From assembly GCA_049516875.1 (NCBI GenBank), contig JBEKSS010000012.1, positions 1 to 64,000 of the forward strand: a stretch of DNA of 64,000 nt, read 5' to 3'. Both the position numbers and the translations under genes were made by a program. The notes under the pieces are model-generated. The model saw only the letters and a program-made list of their open reading frames with translations, made no database searches and was not told the DNA's origin. The stretch is from Candidatus Bathyarchaeia archaeon. Its GTDB lineage: Archaea > Thermoproteota > Bathyarchaeia > Bathyarchaeales > Bathycorpusculaceae. This document shows positions 4,431 through 13,001 of the stretch, piece by piece. Each line of letters opens with the position of its first letter. Positions within the stretch are counted from its first letter, which is position 1.

Positions 4431-5210
4431 ATGACAGTCAGCAATGTGTCCGCAGTTGAGCTAACAGGGGTTGTGAAACGTTATGGCGAGATTTTGGCCG
4501 TGGATAACCTTAATCTGAGCATCAAGTCAGCGGAGGTCTTCGGCCTGTTGGGGCCGAACGGCTCGGGCAAGTCAACGAGTCTAAAGATGCTTCTGGGTCT
4601 GGTTCAGCCTGACTTCGGCTCGGTTAATGTTCTGGGGATCGATGTGCAGAAAGACCCGGTTGCTGTGAAGCGGCTGGTCGGTTATGTTCCAGAATCTCCG
4701 CGTCTGTACGAGTTCTTGACTGGAATCGAGTATCTGGATTTCATAGGCGACGTGTACGGCATGCAGACTGAGGAGAAGAAGGCTAGAATCAACGAGTATT
4801 TGAAGGCGCTCGAGCTTGAAGGCAGGGAGGGCGACATGATAAGCAGCTACTCTGAGGGGATGAAACAGAAGATAGCGTTGATTTCGGCTTTTCTGCACAG
4901 GCCAAAGCTGCTGATCCTTGATGAGCCGCTGAGCGGCTTGGACCCTCGGTCCGCACGAATCGTCAAAGACTTCTTGCATGAACTGAAGGGGCAGGGGGTG
5001 ACCACGATAATGTCGACTCACGTTCTTGAGATTGCTCAGGCTTTGTGCGATCGCATAGCCATCATGTACCACGGAAGGCTTCTCGCCCTGGGTTCGATGG
5101 GCGAGCTGAGGCAAATGGCGAGACTGCCCGACTCGGGCTTAGAGGACATTTTCCTGAAACTGACCGGCACAGGCGATATAAGAGCCGTCGTTGAGGAACT
5201 GCTGAAATGA
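4431..5210 (+). CDS. ABC-2 type transporter ATP-binding protein
   Basis: GPNGSGKS Walker A, YSEGMKQK signature, LILDEP Walker B; start at 4431 inferred. Confidence 0.95.
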   Translation: MTVSNVSAVELTGVVKRYGEILAVDNLNLSIKSAEVFGLLGPNGSGKSTSLKMLLGLVQPDFGSVNVLGIDVQKDPVAVKRLVGYVPESPRLYEFLTGIEYLDFIGDVYGMQTEEKKARINEYLKALELEGREGDMISSYSEGMKQKIALISAFLHRPKLLILDEPLSGLDPRSARIVKDFLHELKGQGVTTIMSTHVLEIAQALCDRIAIMYHGRLLALGSMGELRQMARLPDSGLEDIFLKLTGTGDIRAVVEELLK

Positions 5211-6886
5211 ACTGGAAAAACGTGGCGCACCTGATTCGCGTGGACATGAGGTCGGGTAGGCTTCTCAGAGGACGAAGACTTACGAGATATCGCGAGCATC
5301 GGCTCTTCAACTACCTGGCTTATGGTGGAGCGCTGGTCTTGGGGCTGGTGATCGGCGGACTGGTGGGAGTCTACTACGCGTCTGCAGCGGCGACTATCCC
5401 GGATTTTGAGTCGTTGGTGAAGGATGCAATGCAGAGTCTTCTTCTCTCGTTGCCGACGATTATTCTGATTTACGGTGTGGTTCTGACGATGCTGCAGCAG
5501 ATTCAGCGTAGCGGGGCCAAGTTTTCGGTTCAGGCACAGTATTGGCTGCCAATCACGTGGGAGGAACACACGCTGGCGTCTGTGTTGGCTAGCATGTTGG
5601 GCATGACACTCATTACGATAGTGTTTCTTGCGTCAACGGTCATCGTGTTCTCGACTTTCACGGGGCAAGTTGTCCAGGCTGTATCGTCTGCGCTTGGCAT
5701 GTGTGCGGCTGCTTTCATGGCCAGCGTCATCACGGAGATTCTTAGGATTCTGCAGATGAGGTTCGTGGGTGCGGTCTACAAGTCCACGGGTCGAGCGGCG
5801 GTGTGGGTGAGGTTTGTAGGCTCTCTGGCGTTCTTCCTCGTGTTCTACATCATTTATTTCTACCTTATTTCAGGCGTGGGTGGTGTAACGTTCTTGCAAA
5901 ATGTTGCTTCTGCGCAGAGTGTGGTCTGGTTCGTGCCGTTCGTGTGGTTGGCTATGACGCTTTACTCTTTTATGAATGGACTGTTGCTGCAGGCACTGGC
6001 CTTCTTGGCCCTTTCTCTCTTGTTCATCTTCGCCCTGTTCTACCTGGCCACGTTGCTCAACAGGAGGTTCGGGTTGTATGAGCCTCCGGCGATAACGGTG
6101 TCGCATGGACTGTACGCGCCCAGAACGGGCTTCCTCGGCAGACTCGGGTTCTCCACGGTCGAAGCGGCACTGATAAGAAAGGATCTCAAGGCGTTCACGC
6201 GTCGAAGAGAGCTGATGACAATCTTCATACTGCCGATAGTTTTCATCATAGCTCCGCTGATGCAGTCTCTTGGCACGAAGGGAACATCAGCCTCGTCTGC
6301 ATCTTCGCCGTACTTTTTTGCCTTCATTTTTCTGTTGCCAGCCTCTGCTATGGCTGTTTTCGTGGGCAGCTTCATGACGGGCGAAGAAGGCCAGGCTGTG
6401 TGGCGAATATACTCTTCTCCCATCTCAGCCAAGAACCTGGTGAAGAGCAAGTACTTCATTGTCATCCTTTTCTCAATTCTGGTACTGGCAGTCACTGGAA
6501 TCGTCGGATTCCTCATCCTGCACCCATCCTTGAAGGCTGTTCTTGTAAGCCTGGTCGAATCAGTTTTCCTGGTTTTCGCCTTAGGTTCTCTTTCATTGTC
6601 AATCGGGATAAAGGGAGCCGACTTCACCGAAGTGCCCAGGCCTCGAATGATACGCACCCTCTGGAATTTCCTGAACCTAGCAGCGTGTTTCGTAACAGCC
6701 ATAATAATATTGACCCCCTTTGTGCCCTACATGCTCTCAACGTTCCTTCCCGGCCTAACGGGACCACTCATAGACCTCTACACAGCACTTGTCCTCAGCG
6801 CAATAATCTCGGTTGTCTCAACTCTGATCTTCTATCAAATCGCCGTCAAAAACGCAAGAGAACTCTTAACAAGAGCAGAAATATGA
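5207..6886 (+). CDS. ABC-2 type exporter permease
   Basis: 559 aa multi-TM protein, ATGA overlap with the ATPase, LIRKDLKAF.R motif. Confidence 0.85.
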   Translation: MNWKNVAHLIRVDMRSGRLLRGRRLTRYREHRLFNYLAYGGALVLGLVIGGLVGVYYASAAATIPDFESLVKDAMQSLLLSLPTIILIYGVVLTMLQQIQRSGAKFSVQAQYWLPITWEEHTLASVLASMLGMTLITIVFLASTVIVFSTFTGQVVQAVSSALGMCAAAFMASVITEILRILQMRFVGAVYKSTGRAAVWVRFVGSLAFFLVFYIIYFYLISGVGGVTFLQNVASAQSVVWFVPFVWLAMTLYSFMNGLLLQALAFLALSLLFIFALFYLATLLNRRFGLYEPPAITVSHGLYAPRTGFLGRLGFSTVEAALIRKDLKAFTRRRELMTIFILPIVFIIAPLMQSLGTKGTSASSASSPYFFAFIFLLPASAMAVFVGSFMTGEEGQAVWRIYSSPISAKNLVKSKYFIVILFSILVLAVTGIVGFLILHPSLKAVLVSLVESVFLVFALGSLSLSIGIKGADFTEVPRPRMIRTLWNFLNLAACFVTAIIILTPFVPYMLSTFLPGLTGPLIDLYTALVLSAIISVVSTLIFYQIAVKNARELLTRAEI

Positions 6887-6976
6887 TCTTGTGTCCCATC
6901 GGTAGCGCGCCCATGGAAATAAGCTGCAAGATACTTATAGGCACTCAATAAGCTTATCTGAACGTATTGAAGACGT

Positions 6977-7252
6977 ATGGGCAGTATCATTCTGACAGGT
7001 TGGACGATTCTGAAGCATGAAACCTATGCTGGGAACAAGTTCGGAAAGAGACAATACATCAATGAAACAAAGAACAGAGAATTTCTGGATCGTCTTAGAC
7101 GTCATTTTGAGACTAAAGTAACCATTCCTCAAACACGACGGGGAGAACATCAGGAGATTGAAACTCTAATCACTGAAGAAACCTTCCTGTTCGCCAAATA
7201 CCTGAGGGGTGAAAAACCAAGTTGGAATCCGAGAATCGCAGAGCTGGCGTAG
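6977..7252 (+). pseudogene. C-terminal remnant of a Cas1-family (solo/casposase-like) protein
   Basis: GKRQYIN...FETKVTIP..RRG..QEIETLI.EE..LFAKYLRGEKPSWNPRI resembles the recalled C-terminus of bathyarchaeial solo Cas1. Confidence 0.6.
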
Positions 7253-7452
7253 GTGGTTCCCATGAGAATACGGATTCCTCCCAGAAAAATACGGGAGGCA
7301 AGTATTTTTCGTGTATTCGGTGAAACAAAGAGAGAAAAAGGTCATTCAAGACAAGGAAGTAATAGAAGAAATTAGAAAAGAAATAGGAAAGTTCTCAAGA
7401 CAACCCGATGCTCTTTCCCAGGGCAAATGCGCTCCTCTTTAACCGCTGATCT

Positions 7453-8472
7453 CTACTTAAGCAAAAAAATCTCAGTAGGGTCAATTTGGTCTCGGGAAAG
7501 AAGTTGGGGAATATTCTCTTCCTGGATGCCTGACAACATAAGCTCGTTTATCCCTTGATCAAACGCGTTTTTTATGCTCCTTTCTGATGACAGAGCCAAA
7601 TAGAAAGCAGAAGAGAAAGCGATAGCAGCTTCATCGCTTATGGTCGAAGACATGCCGATTACACAATCAATGTGCTGATTTATTGCAAGCGCTTGTTCAA
7701 GTGAAAAGCATGCGTTCAGAACTATACAACGCACATTGTCCTTAAGAGTTTCAAATACTCTCGCCAATGCATCTGGAGGGATAGTTACAGGGTTTCCAAT
7801 TTTATCTTCAAGGATTATTCTGCCTTCACTTGTTCCATGTCCACTAAAATGAACAATCGTTGGTCTCTCTTGGTTCAGATATAATTGAAGGTCACCCACT
7901 CTTACAGCACCTTTCTTAATTAGAACAAGCTGATCTTTCTTTTGAGCCAAAAGGATTTTATGTTCTATTTCTCTAACTTCCTCGTCAAGCCTTAAGCTGA
8001 CAGTGCTTTTGGGGTTTGCAGCAAGAAAGAGAATTCTAATTTTCTTTTCTGCTTTCTTGGGAGTTGGATGCGTAGTACCTTTTGTTTTCAGAGTTTGGGG
8101 TAATTTTTCATATTTAGAAGAGCCTAGTTGCATCTTGATTTGAAATTTTTGCCTTGCAAGCTCATGAGTTACAAGGTACAAAATTCTCTCTTTGTGTAAA
8201 GAAAAGAAATCGTCTTTGAGATAAGTTAGTCTCCCTTTGATTTTTTGTTTTCCTATTATCTTAGCTTTGTAAAGAATAAGCGCCTCTTGAAGTACTCTGA
8301 TCGGTTCTATGCCAATTCTTGATGCGATTTCTTCTGCAGCCTTTCCGCTACTTTTTCCTCTATAAATCTCCTTGAATACCTCACGCCGATCTTCGGAGCG
8401 GCAAATTACATTAACTGCATGCATTATCTGTGCGTCGGCGTTAGACCTTACATCTGTTGTATTAATTACCAC
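7453..8472 (-). CDS. N-terminal winged-HTH plus C-terminal CHAT (caspase-like) protease
   Basis: ILFLAANP...LRLDEEVREI, VHFSGHG (His), VLNAC (Cys), F..AFY..L; N-terminal EEIASRIGIEPIRVLQE. Confidence 0.9.
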   Translation of the reverse strand: MVINTTDVRSNADAQIMHAVNVICRSEDRREVFKEIYRGKSSGKAAEEIASRIGIEPIRVLQEALILYKAKIIGKQKIKGRLTYLKDDFFSLHKERILYLVTHELARQKFQIKMQLGSSKYEKLPQTLKTKGTTHPTPKKAEKKIRILFLAANPKSTVSLRLDEEVREIEHKILLAQKKDQLVLIKKGAVRVGDLQLYLNQERPTIVHFSGHGTSEGRIILEDKIGNPVTIPPDALARVFETLKDNVRCIVLNACFSLEQALAINQHIDCVIGMSSTISDEAAIAFSSAFYLALSSERSIKNAFDQGINELMLSGIQEENIPQLLSRDQIDPTEIFLLK

Positions 8473-8677
8473 TTTGAGGCAAACCCTTCTTTTTCACTCC
8501 AGCAAACATTTTCACATTGGGGAACATGGCTCTGACGTGACTGGCACCCATTCCCGTAGCCATATCGATTTCCTCTGAGGGTGTTCCGTTTTTCAACAAT
8601 TGAAGAATAAGAAGGTTCCTTATAGATTGGAGTTCTCTCAACTCGTTCCTTTTCTTTCCTCGTTTTTCCTCGGTTAT
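8462..8677 (-). CDS. Small HTH-like protein C' (not in ORF track); ATA start at 8677 or TTG at 8641
   Basis: ITEEKRGKKRNELRELQSIRNLLILQLLKNGTPSEEIDMATGMGASHVRAMFPNVK...; paralogue of 8990-9178; AGGAGG SD. Confidence 0.8.
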   Translation of the reverse strand: MTEEKRGKKRNELRELQSIRNLLILQLLKNGTPSEEIDMATGMGASHVRAMFPNVKMFAGVKKKGLPQSGN

Positions 8678-8708
8678 CGATTTCTCCCTCCTTTCGTAGA
8701 TTATCAGC

Positions 8709-8993
8709 TCATTTCTGGACAGAGGATTTGTCTTCTAATTGAGCATCATCTTCAGGTTTTCTCTTTTTTTTGGGGTACAGATACGCGGAAACATCTGTTG
8801 CTGATTTCTTGCCCAGTATTTTTGCTATTTCTGTAGGAGTCAAGCCAACGGACTTTAGCAAACGTGCTACATCACCTTCGTTGAGTTTCCCCTTTTTGTT
8901 AGGTTTGTTCATCTCTATAAAGAGTCTAATTAATGCATCAAGTCTTCTGACTACGGCTTCATTCGTTGCAGCTTCATTTTGGTTTTTTGTCAT
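8709..8993 (-). CDS. Small HTH protein B'
   Basis: RRLDALIRL...LLKSVGLTPTEIAKILGK....VSAYL. Confidence 0.85.
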   Translation of the reverse strand: MTKNQNEAATNEAVVRRLDALIRLFIEMNKPNKKGKLNEGDVARLLKSVGLTPTEIAKILGKKSATDVSAYLYPKKKRKPEDDAQLEDKSSVQK

Positions 8994-9178
8994 GGTTCTT
9001 CTGCCTTCGATTTCTTTATTAGTTTCATCGGAAACTTCCCTCTTATCGTCATTTCAGGAATGCCTGTAGCTGTTTCGATTATTTCTGGGTCAACGCCCTC
9101 TTTCAAGAGTAAGATAATGAGGAGATTTTTTGTTGCTTCGCTATTTTCAACTTCTTTTTTCTTTGACATTTTGTTCAC
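8990..9178 (-). CDS. Small HTH-like protein C
   Basis: KNLLIILLLKEGVDPEIIETATGIPEMTIRGKFP; overlaps both neighbours. Confidence 0.8.
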   Translation of the reverse strand: MNKMSKKKEVENSEATKNLLIILLLKEGVDPEIIETATGIPEMTIRGKFPMKLIKKSKAEEP

Positions 9179-9426
9179 TATTGTCCCTGCTCATTCTTGC
9201 CCACTTCAGGTTCAATTTGCTGCACAGGTTCAGGCTCTATTTTCTTGTTTTTTGTTCCTTTTATCTTGGAAACAGATATTAATCGCTCAATCGTTTTTTC
9301 GCTAACCTCCAAAGCTTCAGCAATTTCCTTTCTTGTTAAACCTGACCTTACAAGCAAAATCACAGTTATGAGATCTAATCTTTTGACTATTTTGTCAAGT
9401 CTTTCGTTCAAGAACTTGTCGCTCAT
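9178..9426 (-). CDS. Small HTH protein B
   Basis: KRLDLITVILL..SGLTRKEIAEALEVSEKTIER. Confidence 0.85.
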   Translation of the reverse strand: MSDKFLNERLDKIVKRLDLITVILLVRSGLTRKEIAEALEVSEKTIERLISVSKIKGTKNKKIEPEPVQQIEPEVGKNEQGQ

Positions 9427-9451
9427 TGTTTATCTTGCACTTCCTCATGCT

Positions 9452-9535
9452 TTAGTTCAGTTTTCTGAGCCCTTTAAGAATCTCTCTCAGAATCTTGATT
9501 TGTTCACTTTGCTGCTCCATTTTTTCAGACCCCAT
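9452..9535 (-). pseudogene. 27-codon mini-ORF, possibly a truncated operon member
   Basis: MGSEKMEQQSEQIKILREILKGLRKLN is amphipathic like the N-terminus of 9571-9936. Confidence 0.4.
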
Positions 9536-9570
9536 TTATTTCGGATGAGTTTTTTGGGCTCAGTTTTTAC

Positions 9571-9936
9571 TTATTCTGTGGTAGCAGGGCTTGGTTGTGC
9601 GCTAGGTTTAGAAGTCTTCGCGCGTTTTTTCAGAGTTCCAAATTCTATCCCGAGTTCTTGTAACGTGAATAGTGCTCTATGAGAACTGTTATACTGGTCT
9701 GGCGGTGCAACAAATCCCGCTTGGATAAACCCAGTGAGCCAGGTACTAATAGTTGGTTGTGGAACCTTTGTCTCAGCTTCAATTTTGCTTTGAGTATTCT
9801 TCCCATCAAGCTTACTGTATACAAGTGCTTTCTCATAAGTATCCAAGACACTAATTGCATTGGCTCTCGAGACGGCCGCTACGGAGAGACGGAGATAAGC
9901 CCTTATATCGTTAAGAAGCTTTTCAGTTTCGCTCAA
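9571..9936 (-). CDS. Winged-HTH protein A, first gene of the HTH-CHAT operon
   Basis: LDGKNTQSKIEAETKVPQPTISTWL..F..AGFV. Confidence 0.85.
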   Translation of the reverse strand: MSETEKLLNDIRAYLRLSVAAVSRANAISVLDTYEKALVYSKLDGKNTQSKIEAETKVPQPTISTWLTGFIQAGFVAPPDQYNSSHRALFTLQELGIEFGTLKKRAKTSKPSAQPSPATTE

Positions 9937-10600
9937 TTTATTCTACTTCCTTTACCGATTATAACAAGCTGGAACTTAAATTTTATGTTTGCGTCTGGAA
10001 CTGAAGTATTTTACGAAGAAATGATCGTAAATAGTCATTCATTGAAAGCGTTTCGTTTGGTTTGGTAAATTTCCATCAATATCTTATACTACATCTCTCT
10101 CAGACCGACATCAAAGGGCAGAACGTGCGCCTTTTTTGAAGCCTTTCATATATTTGCATAAACAAGTTTGACATATGGGAGGATTACAGACAAACCTATT
10201 TGAACTACGAATTATCAGTGACTCAGACAAGGTTAATCTCAGCCATTTCAAGTTCAATGTTGAAGGATTTTCCCCAAAGCTTGCCTAAAGATATGGTGGT
10301 GCCAGCGTTTGCGGAACTCAGTGAGATTTTTGGAACTATTGCCCAGTGGCAGAAGCAAGTGTCTGAGAACAGAGATTCGCCTAGAAAAGAAGCTGAAAAA
10401 GGCAGACTTTTCGTATACTCGCGATTGGCCTCTTCAAAGTGAACATGAAAAAGCCGCCGAACTCAATTCCGCCTTTAAGATTTGCCAAAATCTCCGATGC
10501 TCCGTAGGCCACTTGTGAGAGCAAATATCACTTTAAAGGGTGAAGTATATATTTCTGTTTGGATACGCTAGAAATCTGCGTGTTAGATGGAGAGGCTTCG

Positions 10601-11149
10601 ATGGGTGAAGAGCAGAAGGAACCGCAGAAAGACGCTGAGCAAGTGGAGGCGCTGAAGGATGCTTTGGACGCGGAGAAGAAGCGTTCAGAAGAGTATCTGG
10701 CCAGGCTGAAGTACGCGCAGGCGGACATTGAGAACCTGAAGAAGAGATATGAAAGACAGATGGAGGAAGTGAAGAAGTACTGCACGGAGCCTCTCATCAT
10801 CGAGTTGCTGGATGTTGTTGACGAGTTGGAGTTAGCGGTCAAGTCTGGCCGTTCTTCCAACTCTGCAGAAGCGGTAGTTCAAGGAGTGGAGATGACCCTG
10901 AAGAAACTCAAAAAAGTGCTCGAAGATCAGGGCGTCTCTCCCATAGAGAGCGTGGGTAAACCCTTCGATCCCTCGAAACACAACGCTGTAGCCAAGACAG
11001 AAAAAGAAGGCGTGGATGGATGCACAATAGCTGAGGAAGTCCGAAAAGGTTATACCATGAGAGAAAAGGTGATTAGACCGAGCGTCGTTAAGGTTGTGGT
11101 GAAACCTTCAAAATCACAAGAGGAGATGAATTCAAATGAGCAATGTTAA
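10601..11149 (+). CDS. grpE: Nucleotide exchange factor GrpE
   Basis: [22 protein letters not shown]...VIRPS.V; ATG at 10601 preferred. Confidence 0.95.
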
Positions 11150-13001
11150 AGCCGGAGAAAAAATACTCGGCATAGATTTAGGAACGACAAACTCGGCCGC
11201 AGCGATTTATGAGAACGGACGAGCAACGGTGATACCCAGCGCCGAAGGACCCACGATGGCAGGGAAAATGTTCCCCTCAGTTGTAGCCTTCACCAAAGAC
11301 GGCCAACTGCTGGTCGGCGAATCGGCAAAGAGACAGGCAACCGCCAATCCCGAAGGAACAGTGTACGAAATAAAAAGAAAGATGGGAACCGACTACAAAG
11401 TCAACATCTATGGAAAAGAGTACACTCCACAGCAGATATCCTCATTCATTCTGCAGAAGATAAAGAAAGACGCCGAAACCTACCTGGCAGTTCCAATAAG
11501 GAAAGCCGTTATCACGGTGCCTGCCCACTTCAACGACAACCAACGTCAAGCCACGAAGGATGCCGGAGAGATAGCAGGCTTCGAAGTTGCAAGGATAATA
11601 AACGAGCCCACGGCAGCCTGCCTCGCCTACGGAGTTGACAAGGTGGAAAAAGAGATGAAGATACTCGTCTTCAGCTTCGGCGGGGGCACTCACGACGTGA
11701 CCGTGATGGATTTCGGCAAAGGAGTCTTCCAAGTACTGTCAACCAGCGGCGACACACAAATCGGCGGCACAGACTTGGACAAGGCAATAATGGATTATCT
11801 GCTCGACGAATTCAAAAGACAGACAGGCGTCAACATGGCCGGAGACAAAAATGCCATGGGAAGACTTAAGGAAGCTGCAGAGAAAGCAAAGATAGAACTG
11901 TCGACGTTGATGGCGACAGACATTGACCTGCCCTTCCTGTCCTCAGATGTTTCTGGACCAAAACACTTGCACCTCACCCTGACCCGGGCAAAACTCGAGG
12001 GACTGGCCCAGCCGATAGTGCAGAAAACGGAGCACACGATGGTTAAGGCGCTCGAGGATGCGAAGCTGACGCCCAAAGGCATAGACAAGATAATTCTCAT
12101 AGGCGGCATGACCCGAATGCCTCTTGTCCAGAGGTTTGTGGAACAGATAATGGGCAAACCAGCGGAGAGAGGCGTAGACCCGATGGAATGCGTTGCAGTC
12201 GGCGCAGCGATACAGGCGGCGGTGCTCACGGGAGAGGTGAAGGATCTGCTGCTGCTCGATGTTACACCATTGTCGCTCGGCGTTGAAACCCTCGGCCACA
12301 TATCTACAAGAATACTTGAGAAGAACACCACTATTCCCACACGGAGAAGCCAGATATTCACAACGGCGGCAGATTTCCAAACAGCCGTCACGATTCACGT
12401 GCTTCAAGGAGAACGGGCAATAGCGTCGGACAACGTGTCCCTCGGCATGTTCAACCTAGAAGGAATACCGCCATCTCCGAGAGGCGTTCCACAGATAGAA
12501 GTAACTTTTGACATGGACGCAAACGGAATACTCAACGTCACCGCCAAGGACCTAGGCACGGGAAAAGAGGCAAAAATAACTATAACAGCCTCCACGAAGC
12601 TGTCGAAAGAAGAGAAAGAGAGACTCATCAAGGACTCTGAACAATACGCCGAACAAGACAAGAGAAAACGCGAAGAGGCCGAGCTGAGAAACAACGCGGA
12701 CAACCTCATGTACACGGCCGAAAAGACAAAGAAAGACCTTGGAGAGAAACTCGCACCGGATCAGAAGAGCAAGATAGACGCGGCCGTTTCTGCGCTGAGA
12801 GACGCGCTAGCCGGCAGCGATTTGGAGAGAATCAAGTCGACATCTGACGAACTCACCAAGGTGCTTCAAGAAGTCGGAACAGCCGTTTATCAACAAGCCG
12901 CAGCACAACAAGCGAAACAGCAAGCCCCCCCTCCAAGCGGAGAGGAACCTCCAACAGGCGACGGAAAAGTAGTTGACTCTGAGGATTACAAAGTGAAGTG
13001 A
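11136..13001 (+). CDS. dnaK: Chaperone DnaK (Hsp70)
   Basis: [27 protein letters not shown]. Confidence 0.99.

Follow-up and report, generated by a model that had tools for sequence, protein, structure and literature searches.

A 64,000-nt stretch of contig JBEKSS010000012.1 (assembly GCA_049516875.1; hereafter the window, to which coordinates refer unless a locus or another contig is named) carries on its minus strand, at 7453-9936, a cassette of small helix-turn-helix (HTH) genes ending in a gene for a 339-aa effector, in which a winged HTH (wHTH) is followed by a CHAT domain. The open reading frame (ORF) listing gives the order A, a 27-codon ORF, B, C, B', C', and effector, in agreement with an earlier reading made from the sequence alone (hereafter the sequence-only reading). 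A (9571-9936), the first gene of the operon, encodes a 121-aa wHTH protein with an N-terminal helix (hereafter A-type) and starts with TTG; the 27-codon ORF that follows (9452-9535) has no family match. B (9178-9426, 82 aa) is an HTH protein of a short B type, C (8990-9178, 62 aa) a minimal HTH protein of subfamily C1, B' (8709-8993, 94 aa) an HTH protein of subfamily B2, and C' (8462-8677) a minimal HTH protein of subfamily C2. The effector gene (7453-8472) starts with GTG. Residues 1-110 of its product (8143-8472) form a predicted ArsR/MarR-like wHTH, designated wN, which is common to effectors with differing C-terminal domains, and residues about 124-339 (7453-8101) form a caspase-like protease domain of clan CD with a His/Cys dyad. 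The stop/start overlaps described in the sequence-only reading are real: they measure 1 nt at B/C (B stop over C start), 4 nt at C/B' (ATGA), and 11 nt at C'/effector (C' stop over effector start). The start of C' is uncertain; its frame is open upstream to 8734, and homologues begin at the codon that is ATA at 8677 in the window and GTG in locus L086, so that the length of 59 (TTG at 8641) to 71 aa (ATA at 8677) given earlier is fair. As set out below, comparative genomics supports a conserved cassette family in which wN and an HTH array are predicted to be combined with interchangeable effectors.

By profile and by its conserved His and Cys residues, the effector is predicted to be a CHAT (clan CD, caspase-like) peptidase. 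It matched Pfam CHAT (PF12770) over residues 124-306 with an E value of 1.8e-7 and 31.3 bits against a cut-off of 24, and the PADLOC model "chat" at 4.1e-17; H208, H212, and C255 were invariant in 26/26 full-length homologues. The proposal that the CHAT dyad is kept behind a wHTH was thus borne out. Apart from the CHAT domain itself and a few weak, generic HTH matches, PADLOC recognized nothing, and, as stated earlier, the cassette holds no nucleoside triphosphatase (NTPase) or tetratricopeptide repeat (TPR) partner. The PADLOC SAVED_CHAT model matched at 4.5e-8 through its CHAT part only (profile positions 278-457), and the closest solved chain was 8tl0_A ("CHAT domain-containing protein", E 3.7e-19), which we take to be a SAVED-CHAT protein. 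A protein search with the effector returned thousands of CHAT-domain matches; 27 of the 120 listed span the whole length, and among the full-length matches listed, the named one is from Candidatus Bathyarchaeota. Relatives of the CHAT domain, with 53-77% identity across its length, are also joined to many N-terminal domains of unrelated kinds, and some CHAT relatives elsewhere carry PF19955 or PF19960, presumably EAD adaptor domains. A second CHAT architecture, with a different N-terminal domain of ~100 aa, was seen in L111 (1319-2179), L121 (766-1617), and L116 (1031-1386), and in proteins P0027, P0032, P0035-37, P0051, P0059-63, and P0066; in the loci, its gene is preceded and overlapped by an A-type gene. 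Other near-identical CHAT domains bear still other N-terminal domains.

Related loci were annotated with local profiles for wN, CHAT, the A, B, and C types, and ALT, an alternative, nuclease-like C-terminal effector domain. A search with effector residues 1-112 found 26 proteins, 19 with CHAT and seven without (~300 aa, no Pfam domain), and a metagenome scan with C' alone found 43 loci. In 34/43 of these C'-selected loci, the gene next after C' encodes a wN effector (7 CHAT, 23 ALT, and 4 cut by the contig end). CHAT with another N-terminal domain, placed after an interposed A-type gene, accounts for 2/43; other genes lie downstream in 4/43, and 3/43 end at a contig edge. Near-duplicates among the loci are L089-91 (near-identical to the window), L093/94, L108/109, L130/131, and L114/116. 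Two loci, L002 and L086, were reached via the effector instead, and both have a C' homologue directly upstream of it: L002 has three A-type wHTH genes and the C' homologue before a frameshifted effector, and L086 has B' and C' homologues before the effector. The full B-C-B-C-effector order recurs with CHAT in L095 and with ALT in L093, L098, L100, L112, and L118, and same-strand A-type wHTH genes stand upstream of the arrays in 36/47 loci, in one to four copies. In L087, from another family of the phylum, C', two B-type genes, and a further five HTH genes in a divergent group lie next to the gene for a 312-aa protein, which matches the N-terminus of the effector (E 9e-11) and has a C-terminus that is not CHAT. 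No second copy of C or wN was found in the window's own genome. In L002, a Bathyarchaeota metagenome-assembled genome, the wHTH-CHAT gene (5995-7004) is split into ORFs of 71 and 239 aa by a frameshift or an assembly error, and a tRNA-like fragment and integrase pieces lie downstream of it.

The sequence-only reading had proposed to see whether the HTH array is conserved while the C-terminal effector domain is exchanged, and the outcome was positive: the array and wN are kept, and the C-terminal domain varies (CHAT, nuclease-like, TIR, and CAP12-TIR). A profile of 27 wN domains was searched against 1.84 billion proteins and gave 399 representatives at E<=1e-3. The best 150 of the 399 comprise 79 ALT, 9 CHAT, 13 other tails, and 49 fragments; seven proteins with "other" tails were scanned, of which four matched TIR_2, one matched CAP12-PCTIR_TIR (a CAP12/Pycsar-type TIR, 1e-39), and two matched no family. 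Trees built from 139 distinct wN domains show at least 8 changes of effector label, compared with 28-37 when the labels are shuffled.

For ALT, a model of the full ALT-type protein (predicted local distance difference test, pLDDT, 83.8) has an N-terminal ArsR/MarR-like wHTH, with a VIA Z of about 10 to wHTH repressors. Because fold searches with the whole protein were dominated by the wHTH, the ALT domain was folded alone (pLDDT 85.5; predicted template modelling score, pTM, 0.85). Its best matches were restriction-type nuclease domains: 1y88 (AF1548; Z 7.6, root-mean-square deviation 3.1 over 109 residues), AspBHI (Z 7.2), FokI (Z 7.1), and then MspJI, BspD6I, LlaBIII, and the Avs4 nuclease. 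Going by their titles, 8/13 of the top structures are endonucleases that act in restriction, nicking, or repair. The fold matches are consistent with one another but modest (Z 5-7.6). Foldseek gave MspJI (probability 0.85, E 0.03), the Atlas lead was Mrr_cat (0.89), and the whole-protein model matched FokI weakly (E 0.013). A profile of the ALT effector searched against PDB sequences found nothing significant. A PD-(D/E)xK restriction-type nuclease would carry a catalytic Asp/Glu...Lys constellation; in ALT, D55, E59, D62, and K82 are invariant, with no acid at the usual position two residues ahead of the Lys. From these models, the domain appears nuclease-like as a reasoned guess, and its activity is uncertain. 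In plasmid and phage collections, ALT homologues were distant only, namely, unannotated Rhodococcus and Gordonia plasmid genes and one phage record. The plasmid homologues (~34% identity) lie on Rhodococcus plasmid NZ_CP023721.1 (L144 3443-4459) and Gordonia plasmid NC_005307.1 and are labeled "hypothetical". Inside the array of L125 (4373-5050), a 225-aa protein combines an N-terminal HTH-like segment with a Hypoth_Ymh domain and may be another effector type.

The small HTH proteins form a set of related types. A gave sub-threshold MarR_2 and HTH_5 (MarR/ArsR) Pfam matches only; B passed the Pfam HTH_23 cut-off (1.1e-5, 25.5 bits vs 24.6) and also matched Sigma70_r4_2 (2.5e-5) and GerE (4.6e-5); and C and C' had no Pfam match. 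PHROGs yielded generic HTH matches for B, one weak generic HTH match for A, and nothing more. In hhalign comparisons, the A and B profiles matched with a probability of 96% (E 2.6e-9), the B and C profiles with 80% (E 1.4e-5), and wN and A with only 56%. From the alignments, B and C appear to be built from an amphipathic helix and an HTH. The duplicated B-C pair seen in the sequence-only reading stands for C and C', which align with an E value of 2e-9 (BLASTP, 43% identity over 37 aa), but B and B' are marginal in pairwise comparison (E 0.053), and orthologues of each are found elsewhere. C falls into two orthologous subfamilies, C1 (window C) and C2 (window C'). C1 orthologues that share its motifs are present in L093, L095, L098, L100, L103, L104, L112, and L118, and B2 orthologues (46-60% identity to window B') in L086, L093, L095, L097, L100, L112, and L118; C2 identity across loci is 40-78%. 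These orthologous subfamilies indicate that the B-C duplication is old and conserved rather than local. By contrast, A-type proteins are highly diverse (10-29% identity to window A in alignment A11); window A is itself part of the A11 profile, so its E value of 3.4e-21 holds by construction. A close homologue of B lies at L105 5753-6004. The C' search returned 64 protein clusters; every one that has a name comes from Candidatus Bathyarchaeota or Bathyarchaeia. A complex prediction for wN with C' scored 0.09 against a mark of 0.32 and was used neither for nor against an interaction. Locus L124 (5574-7050) lies on a 2.7-Mb contig with a type IX secretion system (T9SS) sorting-domain protein nearby; here, a single B-type gene and three C-type genes precede the gene for a 232-aa protein, which has an HTH at its N-terminus and a C-terminal domain of unknown type. 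This contig looks bacterial, so the small HTH types occur outside archaea as well.

Related arrays end in HEPN proteins. With only full-length A-type profile matches at E<=1e-14 counted as arrays, such matches occur in 11/401 genomes sampled from the phylum; matches at E<=1e-5 (173/401 genomes) were dropped as mostly partial, generic wHTH. Nine stretches fetched via the A-type profile contain two to eight A/B/C genes each. In three of them, L175, L176, and L181, the last gene of the array encodes a protein of 262-281 aa that has a Swt1-like HEPN domain, and the HEPN_Swt1 protein type is also found inside the array of L117. The window's genome has two more cassettes, each consisting of two B-type genes and then a 256-257-aa HEPN_Swt1 protein: one on contig C4 at about 163971-165348 (L192 1489-2866), adjoining an ORF with a sub-threshold AbiJ_NTD4 match, and one on contig C10 at about 10381-11875 (L196 1360-2854), adjoining an integrase fragment.

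The cassette, already called AT-rich in the sequence-only reading, lies in an AT-rich islet (6896-10445): the GC content is 0.37-0.42 over 7000-10500 vs roughly 0.47-0.54 in the flanks. The islet is bordered by ABC ATPase and permease genes at one end and by grpE-dnaK at the opposite end. Contigs from four metagenome runs were aligned on 4500-12500. In run X8, a relative that is ~94% identical and roughly 300-fold more abundant covers 4565-6895, resumes between 10446 and 10538, and continues to 12458. Its contigs enter unrelated sequence exactly at 6895 and 10446, where the window islet is missing, and the islet itself is covered by low-depth, identical contigs only. This divergence at both edges indicates a strain-variable slot for the cassette. 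One contig of run X7 joins 8509 to 9011 with 85% likeness; the join could come from a one-pair array or a relative and is too weak to use. A search for an empty site via grpE in 30 family relatives found no shared synteny with the permease gene and was uninformative. Runs holding at least half of the sampled words of the stretch are peat, wetland, and sediment metagenomes, and 6/8 of these runs may be the source of the assembly. The best explanation is that the host is a Bathyarchaeia-like archaeon in which the cassette is accessory and sits on a strain-variable islet.

Elsewhere, integrases adjoin the arrays of L087, L095, L102, L104, and L118, and large terminase genes those of L086 and L125. 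Near arrays, we also found MjaI with a methyltransferase, GmrSD, an OLD-type nuclease, Cas1, and a PLD nuclease with RelA/SpoT, as well as the toxin-antitoxin-type genes TumE, SocA, and MNT-like. Two cassettes have a tRNA gene near them, one with tRNA-Ala (L105 7801-7878) about 235 nt downstream and another with tRNA-His (L126 4692-4765) about 630 nt upstream, an arrangement that fits integration beside tRNA genes. In the unrelated loci L086 (5092-6546) and L125 (23-1384), the large terminase is of the T4 type, and its gene immediately precedes the HTH array. In both it stands alone, with no other virion genes seen nearby, and it could belong to a provirus remnant or a satellite-like element.

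Upstream of A, the putative promoter/operator (9937-10010, minus strand) comprises a TTATAA box about 30 nt before the A start and, upstream of this box, the direct repeat CTGGAACT, read on the plus strand, at 9969-9984 and 9995-10010, 26 nt apart. The repeats are a candidate operator on sequence grounds. The repeat is absent upstream of the other loci, and TATA-like boxes are present there. The 27-codon ORF between A and B, which is present again in the near-identical contigs L089-L091 and has a 1-nt deletion at 9456 in contigs of three runs, is probably not a gene; no counterpart was found in any other locus by an ORF scan that began at 40 aa and was thus blind to 27 codons. It is possibly a remnant of an A/B-type N-terminal helix. 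On the other side of the cassette, the islet includes ORFs of 91 aa (6977-7252, plus strand) and 43 aa (7311-7442, plus strand), convergent with the effector gene. Neither matches Pfam, and the 91-aa ORF, which adjoins the cassette in L089-L091 too, has no PHROGs match.

Taken together, the modular effectors and the mobile and defence-island context support the earlier suggestion of a defence or conflict system in which the HTH proteins act as sensor or controller, and a conflict system of this kind is probably what the cassette encodes. The arrangement, in which related clusters have a nuclease-like or NAD-degrading domain in place of the protease, suggests a putative antiviral self-destruct system. 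Our preferred reading, held tentatively as a whole and a little short of an even chance, is an NTPase-free conflict cassette (antiviral or anti-plasmid) of the poly-HTH type that is activated by crowding on a DNA template. In this model, the five co-translated small HTH proteins (A, B-C, and B'-C') would form the DNA-recognizing part; they would bind or coat the DNA of a target, most probably an invading element, and perhaps their own promoter as well. Through its wN tag, the effector would dock onto the same DNA or onto the array, and the resulting crowding would bring effector domains together and switch them on. The CHAT protease could then cleave proteins of the cell or virus, and growth would stop (abortive infection). 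Caspase-type proteases, FokI-type nucleases, TIR, and HEPN are each activated by dimerization or oligomerization, so that one DNA-templated crowding mechanism could serve all of these effectors. Activation by DNA-templated proximity is, taken as a separate step, a possibility that we regard as doubtful. An independent prediction of wHTH arrays with variable effectors acting on invader DNA, in the available text of a recent preprint (bioRxiv 10.64898/2026.10.19.760177), was counted in favor of the preferred reading.

Several observations weigh against this reading. The loci were picked through C', so the C'-effector adjacency is partly built in. The wN profile matched only 4/401 phylum genomes, one of them weakly; pattern scans of IMG/VR (C' patterns and a wN pattern) found no relatives, a weak result because it is pattern-based; and no RNA run is listed as holding the locus. 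The fold matches of ALT are modest (Z under 8, which according to the tool can reflect a common arrangement), and its motif is without the usual acid two places before the conserved Lys, so "nuclease" is only a reasoned guess for this domain. In an approximately unbiased (AU) test, a single CHAT-linked clade was not rejected (p 0.09); together with the label-change count, this means that domains differ behind one tag, with an uncertain number of effector swaps. That B, C, and C' bind DNA is an assumption, as neither C nor C' has a family match, and invader DNA is a presumed trigger. Finally, the good conservation of B2, C1, and C2 across loci (46-78% identity) is more in keeping with fixed partners than with an arms race against viral DNA.

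This conservation is the reason to keep another explanation, in which the HTH proteins do more than bind DNA and are a fixed hetero-oligomeric platform (A, B1-C1, and B2-C2) with wN as a universal docking tag, rather than proteins that chase viral sequence. We consider it unlikely. If it is true, an HTH adaptor would bring executioners of the caspase-like, nuclease-like, TIR, or HEPN kind together on DNA with no need for an NTPase, by a new immune-signaling logic of DNA-templated induced proximity that would be an archaeal counterpart of the Death-like/EAD adaptors and STAND NTPases found elsewhere.

The array might instead coat and silence the invading DNA itself, with the effector as a backup killer when coating fails, as proposed in the available text of the preprint (bioRxiv 10.64898/2026.10.19.760177). 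Arrays without a recognizable effector (L177) or without a wN effector (L105 and L124) are what such a function would leave, and the number and diversity of the A-type genes point the same way. However, in 34/43 loci a wN effector is translationally coupled to C', so that an effector is nearly always present; it bears its own predicted DNA-binding tag, suggesting an integral rather than optional part; and B2, C1, and C2 are not fast-evolving. We therefore regard coating as the primary function as improbable.

A third explanation is an addiction module similar to toxin-antitoxin systems, in which the small HTH proteins would be antitoxins and autorepressors of a wN toxin, and the module would stabilize its mobile islet. 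The overlap of stop and start codons between small HTH genes and a potentially toxic enzyme directly downstream would suit such a module, as would the integrase-bearing or variable islets, the neighboring TumE, SocA, and MNT-like genes, and the direct repeat by the TATA-like box upstream of A, which could be an operator. Nevertheless, five regulators for one toxin (conserved as two B-C pairs and, across loci, one to four A genes) set the cassette apart from known type II modules, and C and C' offer hardly any sequence outside the HTH with which to wrap a toxin. The chance that the cassette is primarily such a module seems low to us.

The sequence-only reading had also offered the HTH proteins as substrates of the protease, and a circuit in which CHAT cleaves one or more of them to switch a transcriptional program would resemble the protease/anti-sigma/sigma modules attached to type III CRISPR. 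The resemblance of the B types to sigma-70 region 4 and LuxR HTHs (the Sigma70_r4_2 and GerE matches above) speaks for it, and protease-controlled regulators are an established theme, an example being CalpL, which is paired with an anti-sigma factor and a sigma factor. Arrays of the same B-C-B-C order, and the same wN, however, serve the nuclease-like domain (L093, L098, L100, L112, and L118), and wN is also fused to TIR, so a protease-substrate relation is not the common logic; the substrate proposal fits poorly, and this circuit is very unlikely. Least probable of all is that there is no system and that the usual regulators of some integrated element merely happen to adjoin a cargo gene unrelated to them: integrated archaeal elements do carry many small HTH genes, and B gives generic PHROGs HTH matches only, but the same-strand overlapping order recurs in dozens of loci with differing flanks and the recurring effectors all carry the same tag, and we disfavor it. 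Overall, the interpretation offered in the sequence-only reading is partly supported.

Many immune systems rely on caspase-like proteases, TIR domains, and restriction-type nucleases as executioners. In those known to us, the activating signal comes from NTPases, cyclic nucleotides, or CRISPR complexes; here, the predicted executioner domains are wired to HTH modules only. If the array senses foreign DNA and activates a docked effector, this would be a very compact coupling of DNA recognition to cell suicide. Bathyarchaeia are abundant archaea of sediment and peat, and their defence against viruses is almost unknown. The modularity of the cassette (one tag, at least four effector domains, and conserved B-C pairs) gives defined constructs for testing.

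Among known systems, SAVED-CHAT and Csx29 of Craspase are CHAT proteases of type III CRISPR and share with the window cassette a caspase-like CHAT protein as immune effector. The window effector differs in having no SAVED or TPR domain (Pfam gives CHAT only), residues 1-110 being a wHTH, and the cassette has no cyclic-nucleotide or CRISPR RNA (crRNA) input, its sensor side consisting of a wHTH and the HTH array. In STAND/EAD ternary conflict systems, a STAND NTPase is partnered with an effector through an adaptor domain, whereas no NTPase gene lies in or directly beside the window cassette. FokI-type enzymes have DNA-recognition wHTH domains and a non-specific nuclease domain that acts as a dimer; the sister effector wN-ALT is similarly predicted to be a wHTH followed by a domain that aligns in models to the FokI cleavage domain (Z 7.1). 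Unlike in FokI-type systems, no methyltransferase is consistently linked to the arrays, the window's own effector is a predicted protease rather than a nuclease, and the catalytic residues of ALT are putative. Type II toxin-antitoxin modules are similar in that small HTH genes stand upstream of, and overlap, a potentially toxic enzyme on mobile DNA, but here five HTH genes occur in conserved pairs and the putative toxin has its own wHTH.

The closest likeness is to the poly-wHTH systems. Literature searches for a prior description yielded only one relevant source, the above preprint on ParA-like NTPases in immunity, dated 22 Oct 2026, which predicts "poly-wHTH systems" computationally (bioRxiv 10.64898/2026.10.19.760177). 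Its available text also describes ParA-wHTH systems, which are mainly archaeal and contain wHTH gene(s) with an elongated N-terminal helix (10.64898/2026.10.19.760177). The A-type proteins resemble these in being wHTHs with an N-terminal helix in alignment A11, but no ParA-like NTPase gene is coupled here: scans of the ORFs that flank the cassette in the window, of 74 flanking ORFs at related loci, and of 26 ORFs next to further arrays gave no match to a ParA-type family. In poly-wHTH systems, according to the available text, multiple linked and rapidly evolving wHTH copies (up to six or more) occur as separate genes or tandem domains, N-terminal extensions vary, and some arrays are without an effector; the interchangeable downstream effectors are mostly HEPN, besides cNMP (cyclic nucleotide) cyclase, HKD phosphoesterase, TIR, and ParA-Tox-RelA, and the authors propose that the arrays coat invading DNA with the effectors as backup (10.64898/2026.10.19.760177). 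So far, the poly-wHTH model is only a computational prediction in this one preprint (10.64898/2026.10.19.760177).

Since this text predicts the general architecture, the cassette can be called undescribed, as the sequence-only reading had it, only in part since October 2026; CHAT effectors, nuclease fusions, and the small B and C proteins are absent from the available text. The features in common with the described poly-wHTH systems are several linked small (w)HTH genes (five in the window and two to eight per related locus), a variable downstream effector, including the HEPN_Swt1 proteins that end related arrays and the TIR domains fused to wN, and a defence context with some effectorless arrays. 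The differences are the CHAT and restriction-type nuclease-like effectors, the effectors' own wHTH tag and their translational coupling to a dedicated minimal HTH protein (C2), and the conserved minimal, wingless B-C pairs. As to the rapid diversification described for poly-wHTH arrays, the A-type proteins are 10-29% identical to window A, and identity across loci is 46-60% for B2 and 40-78% for C2. Compared by description, as the available preprint text gives no accessions, the window cassette fits the poly-wHTH architecture, with a CHAT protease as its predicted effector.

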